From Sphaerodactylus townsendi (lineage: Eukaryota), in NCBI RefSeq assembly GCF_021028975.2, contig NC_059434.1:42904001-42968000 (forward strand): a stretch of DNA of 64,000 nucleotides. Direction: 5' to 3'. Positions within the stretch are counted from its first letter, which is position 1, and the number at the start of each line of letters is the position of its first letter. Shown here piece after piece: positions 4,847-63,198 of this stretch. The notes beneath the pieces are model-generated. The model was not told the DNA's origin and ran no database searches. It was given only the letters and a program-made list of their open reading frames with translations. The translations under genes and the position numbers were made by a program.

Positions 4847-5425
4847 CAGAGATATACTGGGGCGAAATGATGCCTGGGGCAACAACTACTCTGAGCATCC
4901 CAAGCCCTGCCCCTGTGCCCTCCGCACCCTACTTTCCTTTGCAAGCCTGCAGGGAGGCCGGGGGGCAGGGCTTAGCAGTGGATGGCTTGGGCGGGCACTG
5001 TGGTGGCAGGCTGGCTCCTGCCCTCCAGGGGCCGGCCTGTTGCCATGGCACCTGCCTGGGCTGCCTTCCTCTGGGCCCTGCCCACCCTGGGAGGCCAGGT
5101 AGACTGAAGGGAGGCCGGGGGTTGGACTTGGCAGCAGGCTCCTCAGAGGGATGGCTGGGGTGGGGGACACAATGGTGGGCTGGTTCCTGCCCTCTCCAGC
5201 CTCCCTGGGGTGCAGGAGCCAGCCTGCGGCCACAGCAAATTGCTCAGACAGCAAGCTGCACCCCGGCATGCAGGGAGCTGCCAGGCACTGGCCAGATTGC
5301 CACACCATGGGAACAGCCAGGCACAGAGACCTGGCCAGTGCCCAGCTCCCCCACACACACATGATGAAATGGCATACGCCCTGGGACTTGGGATATCCTA
5401 TGTCCCCATGTTCAGTACACCCCTG
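4847..5425. mobile_element. Old non-autonomous hAT-like DNA transposon with GC-rich interior
   Basis: Termini cagagatatactg and cagtacacccctg form an imperfect terminal inverted repeat (TIR). Flanks ctgatgtc / ctaatatc match 6/8 as a TSD. Confidence 0.55.
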
Positions 5426-8446: not shown

Positions 8447-9887
8447 CATGGACGTAGATAAGGGGGGGTTCTCGGGTTTGACCCCCCTTCATGTCCGAAG
8501 CTCCGCCCCTCTGTTTGTGGGTTTTAAAAACATTTTAGTGCTTTTTTGGTTTTTGGCCTGCAGGGGGCACATTGTTTGGGCTAGCAGCAACAAACTTTCA
8601 GGGATTGTTTGGGGGACTCTCCTGATTATACTACCCGGGTTTGGTGAGGTTTGGTTCAGGGGGTCCAAAGTTATGAACTCCCAAAGGGGGTGCCCCCATC
8701 CTCCATTGTTTTCAATGGGAGCAAATAGAAGATGGGGGCTACACCTTTGAAGGTCCATAACTTTGGACCCCCTGAAGCAAACTTCACCAAACCTGGGATG
8801 TATTATCAGGAGAGTCTCTTATTGATACCACCCAGGTTTTGTGAAGTTTGGTCCAGGGAGTCCAAAGCTATGGATTCCCAACGGGGGTGCCCCATCCCCC
8901 ATTGTTTCCAATGGAGCTAATAGGAGATGGGGGCTACACCTTTGAGGGTCCATAACTTTGGACCCCCTGAAACAAACTTCACCAAACCTGGGTGGTATCA
9001 TTAGGAGAGACTCCTAAAGATACCCTGAAAGTTTGGTGCTTCAAGCTTAACAATTGCACCCCTGACAGCAGGCACCCCCCAAATTTCCACAGATTCTCCT
9101 TTTAGATCTACCCCCTTCGGCATGGATTTAAAGGGAGAATATGAGGTCCTCAGTTTAGAAGAAGAAGAAGAGTTTGGATTTATATCCCCCCTTTCTCTCC
9201 TGTAGGAGACTCACAGGGGCTTACAATCTCCTTGCCCTTGTTCCCTCACAACAAACACCCTGTGAGGTGGGTGGTGCTGAGAGAGCTCTGAAAAGCTGTG
9301 ACTAGCCCAAGTCACCTAGCTGGTGTGTGTGGGAGTGCACAGGCTAATCTGAATTCCCCAGATAAGCCTCCACAGCTCAAGTGGCAGAGCAAGGAATCAA
9401 ACCCGTTCCTCCAGATTAGAATGCACCTGCTCTTAATCACTACGCCACATTGAAAGTGATGCTGTTTCAGGATGGGGGAGAATCCACCCCAAAACAGCAT
9501 CACTTTCAATGTTGTTTAACTAGGGACCCCTGATTCTCCCTTTAAGGTTGATTTAAAAGGAGAATCTGGGCTCCCTAGCTTAAACACCATTGAAAGTGAT
9601 GCTGTTTGGGGGTGGTTTCCAGCATCACAGCGGCTGCCCGGGGTGTGTGTGTGTGCAAAACTCAGATTTTGCACCAGGCTCCATTTTCCCTCTATGCCTT
9701 TGCCCAGAGGGGAGGGGCAGGGGAGGGGAGGGCAGGGGAGTCTGCCATCCCCGACCTCGGAGAGCTGCTTTTATAAGCGCTAGGCCAGAGGCAGGGCTTT
9801 GGGAGGTGTGGTCATGCCCTAGGGGTGGGTGGGGGTGTGGCCCCACCCCGAACCCCCCCCCATAAAAAATCTATACCTATGTCCATG
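8447..9887. mobile_element. Non-autonomous hAT-like element (1441 bp) with internal palindromic repeat array and nested SINE
   Basis: TIRs catggacgtagata / tatacctatgtccatg. Perfect 8-bp TSD gctttagt at 8439-8446 and 9888-9895. Confidence 0.85.
9157..9448 (-). mobile_element. Squam3-like tRNA-derived SINE nested in the hAT element
   Basis: Pol III A/B boxes at the 5' end on the minus strand and a (CTT)n tail at 9157-9172. Confidence 0.85.
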
Positions 9888-11593
9888 GCTTTAGTTCTGA
9901 AAAGCTAATGCTGGAATAAAATTCTGTTCATGTTTAGAATGTGGCTAAACTCCAAGAATCATCCTTTTCCTTTAGTTCTGGATCTTTGCCCTTTCATCCT
10001 TCTCGTGGAGATTCTCAGCTGAAAGCATGAGACCTGCAGTGACCAAAAGAATATTTCTCCTCTCAATAATAAATGTCCATTGATGCTCCTACCAACAAGT
10101 GCACCAGAAAACTAGGAGCGAAAGCAGCAGTTGTCTCCGCCATAACAGTCTTTCTGTCTAGGGAACTGGCCACAGGTGCAAAAGGGAAACATCACTAACC
10201 TGCAGGCAGCAGAACTCAGAGGAAGGGAGGTAGGCTCCAATTTTGCCCTCCCATTGAAGGAAAAGCAACAACCTTGCAGCAGTAAGTGAACTACTTGGCT
10301 CATGCAGATACTTTGATGCTGCCTCCCTCCCTGCCACATTTAGCTGGGATTTGTTGCAGACCTGCTGTGACTGCCTGGCCTCCATTTATTACTGTCTTCC
10401 ATATCCCACACAGCTTCTTTCTTTCTCCATCTTTGTCCATCTCTTTCTGCAGCAGTTGCTGCTCAGTGCTCTGAGACTTAGATGGAAAATACTAGATGTT
10501 TTCTCAATTCCCCCCCGGCCCCCATGAAACACTCAAATACTGGACTTCCCAGATCAAAACTGGGCAGCTGGCAACTCTAGCTGAGTGCTAGATTTGGATA
10601 CACCAAAATAGCTGAGCTAATCCTTTCAGCACAAGTCATGCGGATGTGCTCCTGGACCTCCTGCCAATGAGGACAAAAGTCAGCTGTGAAAGTAGGACAC
10701 TGGCCAACTACCACACAGGCAACCCTTTTGTGGAGGCTGCGGGTGCTAAAAGAATGCCAAATTAGAAGAGTTTTGAATTAAACAATCTGGACACCTTGTT
10801 TAAGAGAGTCTGCCAAAAATATTCAGAGACACACTGATAATAGAAATGAATTACACTGCAATATCGGTTCAGTTATAAAACTGTAATAGTAAAAAATGAT
10901 ACAGTCCACGATTACAGGAAATTATTACTTTAATAGAAAACTCCCCTACAAATAGCATCTCAAAAGGACATAGCTCCAAATAGCTTTCCGGTTTTTTGTA
11001 ACTGTAACCCTTAAGTATCAAAGTGGTTTACATTTATCATATAGGGTTGTCAGGCAGTGCCTGGCAACAGGTGGGAGAGTTGGGGCAGGGGGCAGAGTCA
11101 TGGGAGAAATAGCTTTTTAAAAAAATGAAGTTTCATGTAATTACCAGAAGTTGTCACTGGATATAACAATGGGTAGCTCTATGAATCCAGTTGTTTTTAG
11201 AACTAGTCTTTGTCACTACTGGTAAAGTGTTAGGTCTCAAGCCAATAAATGGACTCTGAAGTATCAATCAGCATTTAATGGTGAGGTATCCAAGCACCAT
11301 ACTTGGCAAAGCCAGTTCTAATGAAACTGGCATTTACAGACCCATATATCTCCTAACAAATCCCCCCTCCCAACTTCCCAGAGGCAGTCTCTGGAACTGA
11401 GATTGCCCCAAGGTCAGCAACAGATAACCAAGGAGCCCCTTGGTCTCCTGCCCACAACAAGATAACAGTTGTAACTCTTTTCTCAAGGGACAGGAGATGC
11501 AGGGGATCCCTAGTTTACCACAAAGCATGCAATGCCATAAAGCATAGGTCAAGGAAAGGATACACAGATGGGAATGGTAACATATAACAGACT

Positions 11594-11809
11594 ATTGTCG
11601 AAGGCTTTCACGGCCGGAATCACTTGGGTGCTGTGTGGTTTCCGGGCTGTATGGCCGTGTTCTAGCAGCATTCTCTCCTGACGTTTCGCCTGCATCTGTG
11701 GCTGGCATCTTCAGAGGATCTCTGAAGATGCCAGCCACAGATGCAGGCGAAACGTCAGGAGAGAATGCTGCTAGAACACGGCCATACAGCCCGGAAACCA
11801 CACAGCACC
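11594..11809. mobile_element. Penelope-like element (PLE) terminal-repeat-derived palindromic insertion
   Basis: Perfect inverted repeat 11625-11716 / 11720-11811. 13-bp TSD catataacagact at 11581-11593 and 11810-11822. The ctgaagatgccagccacagatgcaggcgaaacgtc motif is typical of squamate PLE ends. Confidence 0.85.
11719..11759 (+). ncRNA. Minimal type I hammerhead-ribozyme motif (PLE type); mirror copy on the minus strand at ~11677-11717
   Basis: CTGAAGA-t-gcc..ggc-GAAA-c-GTC with stem I tct/agg (cct/agg on the minus copy), and palindromic ACGT in place of helix III. Confidence 0.7.
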
Positions 11810-11989
11810 CATATAACAGACTGATTACATATATTAAAGAGGCATTGATTGGTTATATCTGGCAGTTACATCATTTCAAGAATGCATTTCAATGGCTCAG
11901 ATACACATCCCCCTAATATAATGATATGAAGCTGCATTTTGTCTTCAACTAGATTTAGTTGTCTTCAACTAAATAGCTTGGCCCAATTT

Positions 11990-14110
11990 AAATTTTCAGG
12001 TGACTTCACGCATATCTCACCTCGTGGCAATAGTGTTCTAGATTATGTTCTAGTTTCACCAAGGTATTATTCAGTCTTTAAAAAATTCACCTCAAGTTTG
12101 GAGTGACCACATGCCTCTTGTGGTTCATCTGTCCGTAGGCCCATCAAGAGCTGTGACTACATCCTGCTCTCATTCTATATTGCACAAAATCAAGTGGAAT
12201 GAGCTTACTAGACAGGCCACTGACTCTCCTCTTCACAGTCCTCTGCTGATGCAATGCAGATCTGCTCTGATTTCATCCTTATCCTTGGACGACTGCATTG
12301 CTAAATTTGAGAATCTGACTCAATCATTGGTTGGGGCCCTTGCAACTCCAATCAAAGCCCGTGTTCCCCCCAAGGTAACTTCAGATCCCAATTTCACTGT
12401 GGAATGCAAGACAACCAAAAAGCATATGAGAAAGATCTTTTCTGCCTATAGGTGCCAGTGTGCTGCTAACCTTCCCGAGGAATATTTTACACTCATGAAC
12501 CATCTATCACTCCTCCTTTGAGAAAATTGTCGCAGGCAAACTAGTATAAAGTGGAGCACTCTCATTCAAGCAGCCCAATCAAATGATTCCAGAGGTTTTT
12601 GGCAACTAGTCACAATGGAATGTGTACATCTGTCCTTTCTGTCTCCAACATTGACTCCCATACCAGGCACAAGTATTTTTGTGAGCTGTTTGGTAATGAG
12701 ACAGACATCACCAATAGGGATGTTTTCCCTTTCACTGGCGATGTTCCCTGCTGGCCTCCAGTTACTAAAGATGAAATAGGGTTATTAATTGATGACCTTA
12801 ATTCTAACAAAGCACTTGTCCAAACAGTATTCCAGTCGAAATTTACAAATTGTTTATTGATTGGTGGTCTCCCCTATTAGCCACCCTATTCACCATGGTG
12901 AATAATTTGGGTCATGTCCCTTCTTCCTGGACAAATGCCACTATTATCCCCTTGTTTAAAAAAGGTGATCATAATTTGCCAGTTAACTATAGATCTATCA
13001 GTTTTTTGGCGATTTCTGGCAAATTATATGCCAAATTACTATTGAATGACATTCTTTCTTGGATCTCACTGGAAAAGATCATTGGTATCAAACAGATTGG
13101 CTTCATGAAAGGGAAGTCTATCCTAGATCATTGCCTGATTTTGAGTACGCTCATCTCAAAATATGTGCAAAAAGGCAAATCCAGTCGTTACGTAGCCTTC
13201 ATAGACTTAAAAGGGGCATTTGATTTTGTCAACAGGGGCCTCTTGTGGTCCAAACTGATCAAGCTTGGAATGGACCCCAGGCTTCTTATGCTGATAATAA
13301 TATCACTGAATGAAAACCCCACCTGCCAAATCAGAATCAATCCATTAGGCCACTTAACCCCCAAAATTATTATCTCCCAGGGAGTCAAGCAAGGTTGTGT
13401 GCTAGCCCCTGTACTGTTTAATCTCTTCCTGAATGAGCTTGCCCCAACCCTGAACCACATTGTCCTCATTTGGATAAGGTTTTGGTTCCAATCCTATTAT
13501 ATGCTGATGATGCAGTTCTGCTGTCCTGCTCAAGGGTCGGCCTCAAGAATTTACTCCTCAAATGTAACAACTACTGCACCTCTAATCAGCTTTCAATCAA
13601 TCCAAAAAAAATCCAAGGTCCTGGTTTTTTCAAACATTTGTAGCCCTATGTCCTGGTCTATTCAGGGCTCAGATCCTTCAGATATTTAGGGGTTGTCTTC
13701 CAGCATAAGCCTGGCTGGACTAAATATAGAGACAAGGCCCTGAAGGGTAGCAAATGTGCTTCTGCTGCTGTTCTGAAGTTTTTTACCCTCAGTGGCGGCA
13801 GATTCATTTCGACAGCCCTGAAAGTATTTAACATGAAAGCGATTCAACATCTTATGTACAGGGTTCCTATATGGATCCACACATAAAAATCCAAGCTTGA
13901 ATGGTTGCAGTCTAACTTCTCATATAAGGTCTTTGGAGTTCCTCACTGTGTCCCCTATGCTGTCCTCTGCCTTGAGGCAGGACAGCATCTTCCGGAAACC
14001 AGGGTGTGGGCCACCATTTTCAAATTTTGGATGCGCCTTTGTTTTCTTTCTGACTCTCACAGCCTGGTCCAACTTGTGAAGGGGGCTCACCTTTTTTTAA
14101 CACTACTTAA
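11990..14110 (+). mobile_element. Degraded non-LTR retrotransposon, probably RTE-X-like: APE endonuclease C-terminus plus reverse transcriptase
   Basis: GDFTHISPRGNSVLDYVLVS and SDH (APE). ORF 12850-13689 contains IPLFKKG, NYRSIS, QIGF, AFIDLKGAFD and GVKQGCVLAPVLFNLF. Frameshifted LLYADD at 13500-13511. Multiple frameshifts and stops. Confidence 0.9.
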
Positions 14111-15198: not shown

Positions 15199-15320
15199 TT
15201 CTCAACCCTGATCTTTGGAGATTTTCCTCATTGAATCAGAGGACTTTTCTGCACTCTCATTTTCCTGGCTTGTAATTCCCTAGCTCTTTGATGAGAGGGG
15301 TTCAGTTTTGTATGTGTTTT

Positions 15321-15334
15321 GCTCCCTCTAGTGG
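15321..15334 (-). promoter_or_regulatory. CTCF-like motif CCACTAGAGGGAGC
   Basis: Close match to the CTCF core consensus; a second copy lies at 15895-15908. Confidence 0.5.
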
Positions 15335-15894
15335 TTGATTTGGCATAAAATAACTGTAAATCTCACATAAAAACCTGAAGAAAATCTGTAGGAAGATACA
15401 CTGGATTTAAAGCTGTTTGATATTGGACTGACTACTAGTGGAAGCAAACACATGCAGAACTGAACCCCCCCCCCCCCAAAGAAACAGGAACATATATCCA
15501 GGAAAATGAGAATGTGAAAAAGCCCAGGGTTTCCTCCTCTCTGATTTCATTTAATTTTAGGTTATTTACAAACTCATGCTGTTTCTACATATCTAGAATG
15601 CCTCTATGCAGACTGGAAGGCATGGTTAAGCAGTTTTTATGACTGGCTCAAGCCACCACATTTAATATTAAGTACTGTGATGGATAGGGAAGGCAATGGC
15701 TGTATAAAACCCAGCTGAAGACTTTCTATATGTTTAGAAAGGGGAGAGCTGGGAGGAGAAGGGGAATGTAAATGTTCTGTGGTATAATGGTAGTTTCTTC
15801 CCTATAATTAATATATAATTATTTTTATTTATTTAAAACATTTAAATATTGATGCCACTTTTCTTCCTCAATGGATGGCCCTCTTTATACTGTT

Positions 15895-36075: not shown

Positions 36076-36435
36076 TAACAGTACAAAATAGCAACATGTC
36101 TCCCAACTTGTAATGTCTCTTAAGTGCTGAAGACCAGTTTCCCATATTTTCTTAACACATGGCTGTCCACAAGTACATGCCTAGATTTCCAGTAGTGAGT
36201 ATACTCCACTCTGCCAGCAGCCAGTAAATTTAACACTGGTACAAGCTTTGGGCCATTGTAACATAATTTAATAAGTCTTACCTTTGAAAGGCAGATTTAT
36301 TTTTAAAACACCTGCAATTATTTGAATGACTACTTTTCAATATGTTTGAGATTTTTAACATAACAACATCCCCACCACCACCACCACCCAGACACCACTA
36401 ATATGTTCCAGATAAATTACGGCTGATTTCACATA

Positions 36436-36482
36436 TGTATTGTCATACAGCCATACAGCCCAGAAACCACACAGCATCCAAA
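36436..36482. mobile_element. Internally deleted relic of the PLE palindrome family
   Basis: tattgtc left end plus gccatacagcccagaaaccacacagcatcca right end; flanking direct repeat tgatttcacata. Confidence 0.65.
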
Positions 36483-37679
36483 TGATTTCACATAATTTCC
36501 ATGGAGACAAGTAGGACTAGTTTATAGGCTTAAAACAATATCTCGAGTAGTTATCATTATGTATACGTTTATATCTTGGTATCGTTATTATATACAATGA
36601 TGGCCAATTGGACCTGCATTTGCTTTTTTTAATGCCATCAAAGGTTTTTTAAAAAATATCCTTAGAAACCCAAAAAGGAGGAGGAATGTTTAGAGAGTTC
36701 CAGTCCCAACTAGTGGCCAAAATATAATCAACAGCACAAGATGCAGGGTCCCAATCCTGTTACAGACTCTTTCTGCCTTAGAGACACAAGATCTACTAGT
36801 GAGAAGGAGTGGTGCCTGCCACTCATAAAAACTTGAGGCCACTGTTTCACTTATTGAAAGGAGCTGATCAAAACTACCGAAGTTATCAGTGGGAGTGTGA
36901 ATAAGCAAATGCACACCATAATCATCAAAACAATTAAGCAGGCCTGATGCGGCCCAAATAAAAATGGACCACAAAATGAACCTTGTGCAATCTGCAGAGT
37001 AATCTGCACAGCAAAAAAGGCTAGGGAAAAACATAAAAACAAATTACCCTGCAGAGGGATTAGAATGGCATTCCCCAATGATGGAGATCCCTGTCAAGAA
37101 AAGAGCAAAAAAAAGGATAGAACACAGAACATCCTTGGCGGGGGGGGGGGGCGGGGGGAGCGGCAAAGTCAAATAGCTGAAGCCTCCAGACCGAGCATCT
37201 GGAAGCTAGTTCCCGTTAGCTGAAGAAAACATACTGGTAATTATAAAATATTCCATGACTATGTGCAATGTTTGCACTAAAATAAAAGACAAAAGTAAGG
37301 TACATCTAGTGCCCTAGTGCAAGTTGTGGTATGACCAACTAACTTGCAGAAGACCAGGAACTTGCAGAAGACCAGAAACCACTGGCTGACACAAGCTGCC
37401 CACACTATAAGGAAGGAGGCTGTAATCTGAAATGGCACTAACTTCCAGAGGCTCAGAGTCAAAAGAAGTGCCATGAGAAAAACACAGTGTTTAGGTCACC
37501 CAAGTGATGCACATTAGCTCTGTCTCAGAAGAAAAAACAAATCTGGACATACCCAAAGGGCAAAATATACCCCCAAAAAACAAATTAAGTTATGGTGTCA
37601 TCTGTAGGTTTGTAAGAATGTCAGAAACTGCACCTGCGGAAGCAAAATAATTAGATGATCTTGGCCATGACCTGAAGTG

Positions 37680-41728: not shown

Positions 41729-42387
41729 CAGTGGTGGTGAACCTTTTTGAGACCAAGTGCCCAAATTGCAACCCAAAACCCACTTATTTATCGCAAAGTG
41801 CCAACACGGCAATTTAACCTGAATACTGAGGTTTTAGTTTAGAAAAAGCGGTTGGCTCAGAGGTGTGCGTTACTCGGGAGTAAGCTTGGTGGTAGTCGGT
41901 GGCTTTGCTTTGAAGCATCCGTGCAACTCTTCCAACGGGTGAATCACGACCCTAGGAGGGTTTACTCAGAAGCAAGCCCCATTGCCAGCAACCGGGCTTA
42001 CTCCCAGGTGAAGGATCACGCTTCAGTTCTTCGCTTGAAAATCAGTGGGGTTTAACAGTGCTTAACAGGGTTACCTACACTGCTTCCCCAAACTAGTGCT
42101 CATTCCGCACATGCAGAATAATGCACTTTCAAACTGCTTTCAGTGCTCTTTGAAGCTGTGCGGAATGGCAAAATCCACTTGCAAACAGTTGTGAAAGTGG
42201 TTTGAAAACGCATTATTTTGCATGTGCGGAAGGGGCCTAGGTCTTAGGTTTAATGCTAATAATCAAGCCCAGCAGCCCAGGCCAGCCTAGATGTGTGGGG
42301 GGGGGGGGGCAACTCTGTTTGCGCGTGCCCACAGAGAGGGCTCTGAGTGCCACCTCTGGCACCCGTGCCATAGGTTCGCCACCACTG
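41729..42387. mobile_element. Non-autonomous hAT (Charlie/Buster-like) element with nested MITE
   Basis: TIR cagtggtggtgaacct / aggttcgccaccactg. Perfect TSD tcctagtg at 41721-41728 and 42388-42395. Confidence 0.9.
42097..42237. mobile_element. Harbinger-like MITE (141 bp) nested in the hAT element
   Basis: TIR ttccgcacatgcagaataatgc / gcattattttgcatgtgcggaa; 3-bp TSD tag. Confidence 0.75.
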
Positions 42388-58989: not shown

Positions 58990-59580
58990 TGTGTTAACTA
59001 CTGCTGACTTATAACGATCTTATGAATTAATGTCCTCCAAAACATCTTTTCATAAACAACCTTGCTCAGGTCTTGCAGACAGAGATGTGGCTTCCTTTAT
59101 TGAGTCAATCTAGACTGAGGGACGTGGCTTCCTCGTATCCTGCTGACTTCAATGTTTGCTAGTATTATTGTCTTTTCCAGTGACTCCTGTCTTCTCATTA
59201 GGTGACCAAAGTACAATACCCTCATATCAATCATTTTAGCTTCAAGGGATAGTTAAGGCTTGATTTGATCTAGAACGGGGGTAGGGAACCTGCGGCTCTC
59301 CAGATGTTCAGGAACTACAATTCCCATCAGCCTCTGTCAGAATGGCCAATTGGCCATGCTGGTAGGGGCTGATGGGAATTGTAGTTCCTGAACATCTGGA
59401 GAGCCGCAGGTTCCCTACCCCTGATCTAGAACCCACTTAGTTGTCTGTTGACAGTCCACAGTATTGATAAAACTCTCTTTCACCACCACATTTCAAAGGA
59501 ACCTACTTTCAGCTTTCTTCATTGTCCAACTTTCACACCCTACATAATAATGGAGAATATTATGGCAAGAGTTAACTTGA
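58990..59580 (-). mobile_element. RTE (BovB-like) LINE 3' fragment interrupted by a MITE
   Basis: Reverse of the FEMWW.KRV / LYFGHLMRRQESLEKTIIL region of RTE ORF. Confidence 0.7.
59276..59423. mobile_element. Palindromic hAT (Charlie/Buster-like) MITE, 148 bp
   Basis: Near-perfect hairpin ggggtagggaacctgcggctctccagatgttcaggaactacaattcccatcagcc and its reverse complement; perfect TSD atctagaa. Confidence 0.92.
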
Positions 59581-62533: not shown

Positions 62534-63198
62534 CAGGGGCTTATCTACCTAAAACAAGTCCAGGCACCACGTCACCCCAACTACACCCTGACCCACCCCA
62601 CCCCTCCTGGATGGGGTTCGGTTGATGGCTTGCGAGCAAGGCTCGCCCCTGTTCACAATATTCATGTGGACATTGTGAACTGGGCGAGCTGACTCACCCC
62701 TCCTGTACCCTCTGCACATGGAGCAGCATGGGCCATTTGAGCCTGGCTGGCCCCAGCTACCCTCAGACTGAAGCCGGCTGCTCTGGAGCCTCTAGCTTTA
62801 TACTGTTGGCTCCTCCCTGCAACCTTTATCTCAGGTCAGGTGGAACTTGGGGGACAGAGGGATCAATAGAAACAGGCTTCAGTTTGAGCTCGGCTGAGGC
62901 CAGGCTTGGATCTAGCTCTAAACTGTAGACTGCAGTTTAGAGCTGGGCCTAAGCCTGGCCTAAGCCGGGCTCAAACGGCCCCTTGCTGCTCCCATCTCCA
63001 CGTGGAGATTGGGTGTGGCACATCTGGCCTCAACATGGAGACTAGGAAAGGGCCAAGCCCTGCTCACTGGCCTTCAACTGCACTCCCAAATATGGAGTTT
63101 CTGACTGGGGTGCAGTTGGGATATGGCTGCAAAATGCAGCCCCCAGAAGTGGTGCCTGGGGCTAGAGACCCCTCCTGCCCTCTCTAGATATGCTACTG
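62534..63198. mobile_element. Old non-autonomous hAT-like element (665 bp) in the intron after the microexon
   Basis: Ends caggggcttatcta / tagatatgctactg; flanks tttacctc / attacctc; internal hairpin at 62641-62689. Confidence 0.6.

Follow-up and report, generated by a model that had tools for sequence, protein, structure and literature searches.

Two minimal hammerhead ribozyme cores lie back to back, one on each strand, in the middle of a long palindrome within the 64-kb stretch of DNA analysed here (hereafter, the window). The question raised by this locus is whether such a pair constitutes an undescribed RNA system, as the initial annotation proposed, or the residue of a mobile element of a known kind. 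We found that a Penelope-like element (PLE) of the Poseidon type very probably gave rise to the locus by a short insertion in head-to-head arrangement. The hammerheads were likely carried along in two truncated copies that were inserted in one event.

Anatomy of the double-hammerhead palindrome

The insert comprises 218 bases (11594–11811) and carries one minimal type I hammerhead core per strand. Its two arms, 11625–11716 and 11720–11811, are complementary at 92 of 92 positions, with a 3-nt loop between them. The left arm extends beyond the right arm on one side only, by an unpaired tail of 31 nt (11594–11624). The insert is framed by a 13-nt direct repeat (11581–11593, identical to 11810–11822) that has no third occurrence in the 64-kb window, and the chance of an 11-nt repeat at both insert ends was estimated at approximately 1.7e-5. 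Because the first 2 nt of the right-hand repeat also fit the element, the target-site duplication amounts to 11–13 bp. The features of the locus are given below, where PAc denotes the reference Poseidon element introduced in the next section and "loose ends" and "runs" refer to the sequencing reads described further on.

11581–11593, no strand: target-site duplication, left copy (13-nt repeat, 11–13 bp)
11594–11624, minus strand: unpaired PLE tail of 31 nt, the 3′ end of the minus-strand copy, ending +115/116 from the ATG; loose ends before 11593 in four of four runs
11625–11721, minus strand: left arm, a 5′-truncated copy of a Poseidon-type pLTR and ORF start (likeness to PAc; family reads fit to 11721 in four of four runs)
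11676–11718, minus strand: minimal type I hammerhead with a stem I of 4 bp; core beginning at 11714, cleavage predicted at 11680/11679
11717–11721, no strand: inversion junction, consisting of the loop (11717–11719) and a presumed 2-nt overlap (11720–11721) common to both copies; loose ends behind 11721
11719–11759, plus strand: minimal type I hammerhead with a stem I of 3 bp; core beginning at 11722, start codon at 11728, cleavage predicted 3′ of 11756
11720–11811, plus strand: right arm, a second 5′-truncated copy, ending +82–84 from the ATG, without tail; loose ends behind 11810 listed in three of four runs, and depth collapse after approximately 11808
11810–11822, no strand: target-site duplication, right copy, the first two positions of which are compatible with the element as well

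The plus-strand core consists of CTGAAGA (11722–11728) followed by one bulged base, GAAA (11749–11752), a single C, and GTC (11754–11756); this arrangement supports, as a prediction, the cut 3′ of GUC, after 11756, that had been proposed for it. Stem II contains 3 bp, an A·A mismatch, and 2 bp capped by a 7-nt loop, and stem I (TCT/AGG) contains 3 bp including one G·U pair. The minus-strand core, running from 11714 down to 11680, is identical to the plus-strand core, and the spacing of the two is 7 nt. Its stem I had been described as a perfect cct/agg helix; the pairing was confirmed, but the helix was one base pair too short and in fact comprises 4 bp (TCCT/AGGA). Both strands present the CUGANGA, GAAA, and NUH elements of minimal hammerheads together with stems I and II. 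A stable helix III is lacking, and the palindromic tetramer is ACGT, whose 4-bp intermolecular duplex contributes only −3.1 kcal/mol. The start codon (ATG at 11728) overlaps the plus-strand core, and an open frame of 38 codons runs from the ATG on the longer arm.

A minimal-hammerhead descriptor applied to both strands of the 64-kb window returned exactly two sites, namely the palindrome pair, confirming the mirror-image cores of the initial annotation. In 60 Markov-1 control sequences the mean was 0.05 sites, and none of the 60 reached two. Since the two sites are mirror images and not independent, we counted them as one motif. The search for a hammerhead family that had been recommended gave a negative result: the Rfam scan produced 29 matches at E-values up to 10, none of them to a hammerhead family; the Rfam models miss the motif. 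Sub-threshold Rfam matches to microRNAs at 11669–11767 (best score 53 bits, gathering threshold 100 bits) were rejected and reflect the hairpin.

Relationship to the Poseidon element PAc

The closest point of comparison is PAc, the Poseidon element of Anolis carolinensis, in which the same ribozyme has been characterised (Frangieh et al., 2024; PMC11167929). The longer arm, read from 11717 to 11593, aligned to the PAc RNA template without gaps, with 105 of 125 nt identical (counted by eye). Every core base is kept except variable position 7, and the stem II pairing is also kept. At our locus 26 nt separate the start codon from the predicted cut, the same distance as is given for the hammerhead cut of PAc (PMC11167929). 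According to the consulted part of that study, PAc reverse transcription starts at +111–118, and the 30–40-nt tail corresponds to the interval from one start site to another (PMC11167929). At our locus the outer end of one arm is at +115/116 (the tail) and that of the other at +82–84, 31–34 nt apart. The tail end thus falls inside the mapped start region of PAc, and the right-arm end at +84 would correspond to a second start site of the PAc type.

The locus therefore combines the marks of a Penelope/Poseidon PLE insertion: homology to a Poseidon pLTR and ORF start, an inverted 5′-truncated copy, a one-sided tail of 30–40 bp, and a target-site duplication. The PAc homology, with the core features, also bears out the earlier assignment to PLE-type minimal hammerheads with an ACGT tetramer. 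In comparison with PAc, the locus holds only stubs of 129 nt and 92 nt without reverse transcriptase (RT) or endonuclease sequence, and its upstream letters differ; it represents a related family, probably in another squamate, rather than PAc itself. Head-to-head stubs are not discussed in the portion of the PAc text covered here (PMC11167929). Neither the pLTR sequence further upstream nor the remainder of the ORF is present in the stub at our locus, which is likely inert.

A peptide search with the translation of the repeat retrieved seven proteins (P0001–P0007) that carry it within other sequence, including one gecko protein with 80% identity, which together with the PAc match points to a squamate host. 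Six of the seven were scanned, and no RT or GIY-YIG domain was found in these; the search retrieved no full-length RT–GIY-YIG ORF of the family. The seven proteins are probably gene models that took in the ATG of the repeat, embedded in unrelated sequence. One of them, the caspase-domain protein P0006, starts with the peptide of the repeat. The E-T-S codons spanning GAAACGTC are kept in five of the seven matches, a weak indicator of core conservation; they are changed in P0001 and in the second copy within P0004, or in P0001 alone when first copies are counted.

Precedents for the architecture

Comparable arrangements have been described for PLEs. An inverted 5′-truncated copy beside the 5′ end, with a 30–40-bp tail at one end, is presented as typical by Craig et al. 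(2021; PMC8557442), and inverted pLTRs, a 31-bp tail, duplications of 8–10 bp (in a rotifer), and palindromes at the inverted junction were reported by Arkhipova et al. (2013; PMC3846280). The locus resembles such EN+ PLE insertions in its head-to-head copies, its 31-nt tail on one arm, its short duplication, and the coverage of the first ORF codons by pLTR and tail (PMC3846280; PMC8557442). Unlike in a typical EN+ PLE insertion, both copies are truncated within the pLTR, so that the whole insert is a 218-bp palindrome without an ORF body.

The opposite-strand pair has a precedent as well. Cervera and de la Pena (2014; PMC4209133) reported pairs of minimal hammerheads located near each other, one per strand, and found no cleavage with a single motif and low cleavage with dimers. 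With the minimal hammerheads of metazoan PLEs in that report, our cores share the absence of a real helix III, the palindromic tetramer, the bulged base before stem II, a G–C first pair, and a short stem I (PMC4209133). The opposite-strand pairs of Schistosoma are approximately 100–700 bp apart, whereas 7 nt separate the cores here (PMC4209133). Non-LTR retrozymes (bioRxiv 10.64898/2026.07.22.740005) are similar in being non-autonomous, pLTR-derived, and equipped with a type I hammerhead. However, they form same-strand tandem arrays with at least two ribozymes per transcript, whereas the locus provides one ribozyme and its antisense per strand. We rejected classification as a non-LTR retrozyme, since this would call for a tandem array of two or more consecutive units on one strand, each with a complete hammerhead, and the locus has one core per strand.

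Element type, architecture, and opposite-strand hammerhead pair are thus already known. The proposal of an undescribed RNA system does not agree with the characterisation of the PAc ribozyme (PMC11167929), with the opposite-strand pairs reported in 2014 (PMC4209133), or with the typical PLE insertion, which consists of inverted, truncated, one-tailed copies (PMC8557442; PMC3846280), as far as the consulted parts of these papers show. The locus is an unexceptional repeat copy of a PLE that is very abundant and has been studied before, and not a new self-silencing RNA system. Among the papers listed by our literature search, whose coverage excluded most subscription journals, none dealt specifically with PLE palindromes containing two hammerheads or with cut-site junctions.

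A sister insertion and related copies

A second insertion of the family was found in the window.

36424–36494, no strand: sister insertion, a further member of this PLE family, framed by a 12-bp duplication (the word occurs twice in the window)

Its 47-nt insert consists of 9 nt of the antisense tail end followed by 38 nt in the sense orientation (+49 to +86; 33 of 38 identical). It has the same polarity as the palindrome and nearly equal outer ends, and it contains no hammerhead, no palindrome, and no sequence common to its arms. The two-endedness is therefore the constant feature of these insertions, and the ribozyme pair is incidental. An insertion of this size is far too short for usual repeat annotation. 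A relaxed scan of the window gave four family clusters, the two others being single 14-mers without duplication; five shuffled controls gave between zero and two clusters, which places these 14-mers at the control level.

In two DNA runs (organisms A and D), the summed depth over the element was 1.2–12 million compared with approximately 18–60 on the unique right flank, a ratio that does not represent a copy number. Loose ends, among those listed, were present at 11593 in four of four runs and at 11810 in three of four. Joints were collected for organisms A and D at 85% likeness with the palindromic sequence as reference, a setting in which two-core copies might not register as joints. In all 15 joints listed, out of 371, an antisense arm is connected with a sense arm whose first position is at 11755–11788, and 13 of the 15 carry the entry "between: not known". 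Since the sense arm begins at 11755 or later, none of these 15 (of 371) keeps two cores. Among the same 15, the arms are joined at many points in different copies, and most of the joints are asymmetric. The joint 11717 to 11593 would suit a partial tandem in head-to-tail orientation. We saw no empty site: a joint that skips the insert is absent from the 15 joints listed (of 371), and no contig spans the locus. We also asked whether the same inverted unit recurs in the manner of a MITE, and found that the sister copy and the 15 joints listed (of 371) differ from the 218-bp unit. The palindrome as a conserved unit was not sustained: the sister insertion lacks it, and among the listed joints other copies join their arms at many points.

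Joints from 11710–11721 to 11755–11759 were set aside as possibly false, because the family has one upstream variant that looks like its downstream sequence in reverse complement. This variant would give an extended stem I, which is absent from the stubs here. The loose ends at 11717, 11721, and 11676/11760 point to at least two upstream and at least two downstream family variants around one common hammerhead core.

Insertion mechanism

We propose that a GIY-YIG/RT protein encoded at another locus would nick both DNA strands 11–13 bp apart, and that each nick would prime reverse transcription inside the element RNA, one at approximately +115, giving the tail, and the other at approximately +84. 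Both cDNAs would stop early, 3–7 nt upstream of the hammerhead core, and would be joined 5′ end to 5′ end via a 2-nt overlap, which we place at 11720–11721 because family reads fit up to 11721. Two cDNAs covering the same stretch would yield a palindrome, as at 11594–11811, and two that do not would yield none, as at 36.4 kb. We thus infer a two-primer step in PLE insertion. Twin priming of L1 is a comparable process: a single insertion contains an inverted segment, carries a duplication, and shows microhomology where the orientation switches, in likeness to our locus. The arms of such L1 insertions derive from one RNA and barely overlap; here, unlike in L1, 92 nt are common to both arms, and their formation would thus need two templates or the re-use of one. 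For PAc in vitro, both strands are nicked or cleaved and extended, initiation is internal, and the protein is predicted to be a dimer (PMC11167929).

The same element could also have produced the palindrome by fold-back, that is, by self-priming of one cDNA or of an antisense template at the GATC junction. The perfect arms (92/92) and the 3-nt loop over the GATC palindrome suit this route, and self-priming was proposed and favoured by Arkhipova et al. (2013; PMC3846280) for the head-to-head palindromes of PLEs. However, fold-back cannot make the sister insertion, which has the same polarity and ends and whose arms have no sequence in common. The predominance of asymmetric joints among the 15 listed (of 371) also argues against it, as does the coincidence of each outer end with a different end point of the family (loose ends at 11593 and 11810). 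Fold-back could make the present locus, where the two routes are inseparable by sequence, but as an explanation it appears improbable beside insertion of two separately primed copies.

Folding, transcription, and the question of selection

Folding predictions gave −204 kcal/mol for the arm–arm duplex. Forcing the hammerhead fold costs 72–78 kcal/mol, both in the whole insert and in transcripts that stop 10 nt beyond the cut site, which agrees with the initial expectation that the hairpin outcompetes the ribozyme; the antisense arm is indeed transcribed first on both strands. In single arms the same constraint costs 5.0 (minus) and 9.6 (plus) kcal/mol, penalties that are overstated because the folding model ignores the non-canonical contacts of the core. 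The 92-bp hairpin is thus predicted to keep both ribozymes unfolded in read-through RNA. Such silencing would be a side effect of the insertion geometry: the predictions support its physics rather than a function, and nothing points to selection.

Two RNA runs contained 7,816 and 11,756 family reads, 77% and 82% of which run on into unlike sequence and therefore stem from other loci. Both runs come from organism D, in which the insertion may be absent, and the flank bin 11932–11962 had zero RNA depth. RNA ends matching the cut, which the initial annotation had suggested seeking, were not among the ends listed: no pile-up of read starts or ends was listed in the two runs, at the cut or elsewhere, which is weak evidence, and fragmented cDNA keeps ends poorly. 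In the PAc RNA-seq data no read ends at the hammerhead cut (PMC11167929).

A selected, self-silencing RNA module, or a non-autonomous element spreading as a unit, is a very improbable reading of the double-hammerhead palindrome. Such a reading would account for two intact cores, for a hairpin predicted to block both ribozymes, and for the family sequence found in both RNA runs. Against it, only one of the two family insertions in the window is a palindrome, not one of the 15 joints listed (of 371) retains the core pair, and stem I is reduced to 3–4 bp. In addition, 77–82% of the RNA reads originate elsewhere with no start or end pile-up listed, and the PAc hammerhead cuts only with the protein of the element and is dispensable for insertion in vitro (PMC11167929). 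An assembly or chimeric (fold-back) read artefact, which perfect arms with a tiny loop and the lack of a contig across the locus might recall, is hardly credible, because it would mirror the flanks, whereas here the flanks differ, one arm is tailed, and a direct 11–13-bp duplication frames the insert.

Surrounding sequence and pattern searches

The left flank of the insert is an older repeat. On the right, a frameshifted ORF2 of an APE-endonuclease LINE occupies 11933–14087 (RVT_1 E-value 1.6e-19; best relatives 45–56% identical), and the palindrome lies just upstream of this unrelated LINE or inside its decayed 5′ part. The RT ORF at 12808–13689 was rejected as a PLE parent, its relatives being APE-endonuclease LINEs. 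At 8564–9062 an array of approximately 195-bp units contains both direct (81–84%) and inverted (76–84%) repeats and is satellite- or MITE-like. Six MITE-like, hairpin-forming inverted repeats (9447–9619, 59269–59430, 62882–62976, 42098–42236, 15241–15525, and 4998–5235) were unrelated to the PLE by blastn. Pattern scans returned no loci in viral contigs and none in prokaryote genomes, and the single metagenome match (L001), which is 22 nt long and lies in GC-rich DNA, was dismissed as due to chance.

A junction at the predicted cut sites

One joint deserves separate mention. In the joint 11679 to 11757, both arms begin immediately behind the predicted cut, and either no A or a single A is added. 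It was seen in one contig in run X1 and four in run X6, the most contigs among the 15 joints listed (of 371). This suggests that cut RNA sometimes serves as template; 11679 and 11757 are also exact mirrors, so that a symmetric loss of the hairpin tip could produce the same joint. As a tentative and rather doubtful extension, the stubs may record PLE integration in which both target strands are primed, one per internal start site, from two RNAs on a dimeric protein, the template having been cut by its ribozyme in vivo in some events.

By itself the locus matters little, being one of very many dead stubs of a studied family. The two insertions in the window argue against fold-back as a general source of PLE palindromes. 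Inversion junctions could bear on the cutting of PLE hammerheads in vivo, a question left open in the consulted parts of earlier reports (PMC4209133; PMC11167929; PMC8557442). If the tentative integration scheme were true, evidence of in vivo cleavage, which was not found in PAc RNA-seq, would be readable from approximately 10^5 genomic copies.
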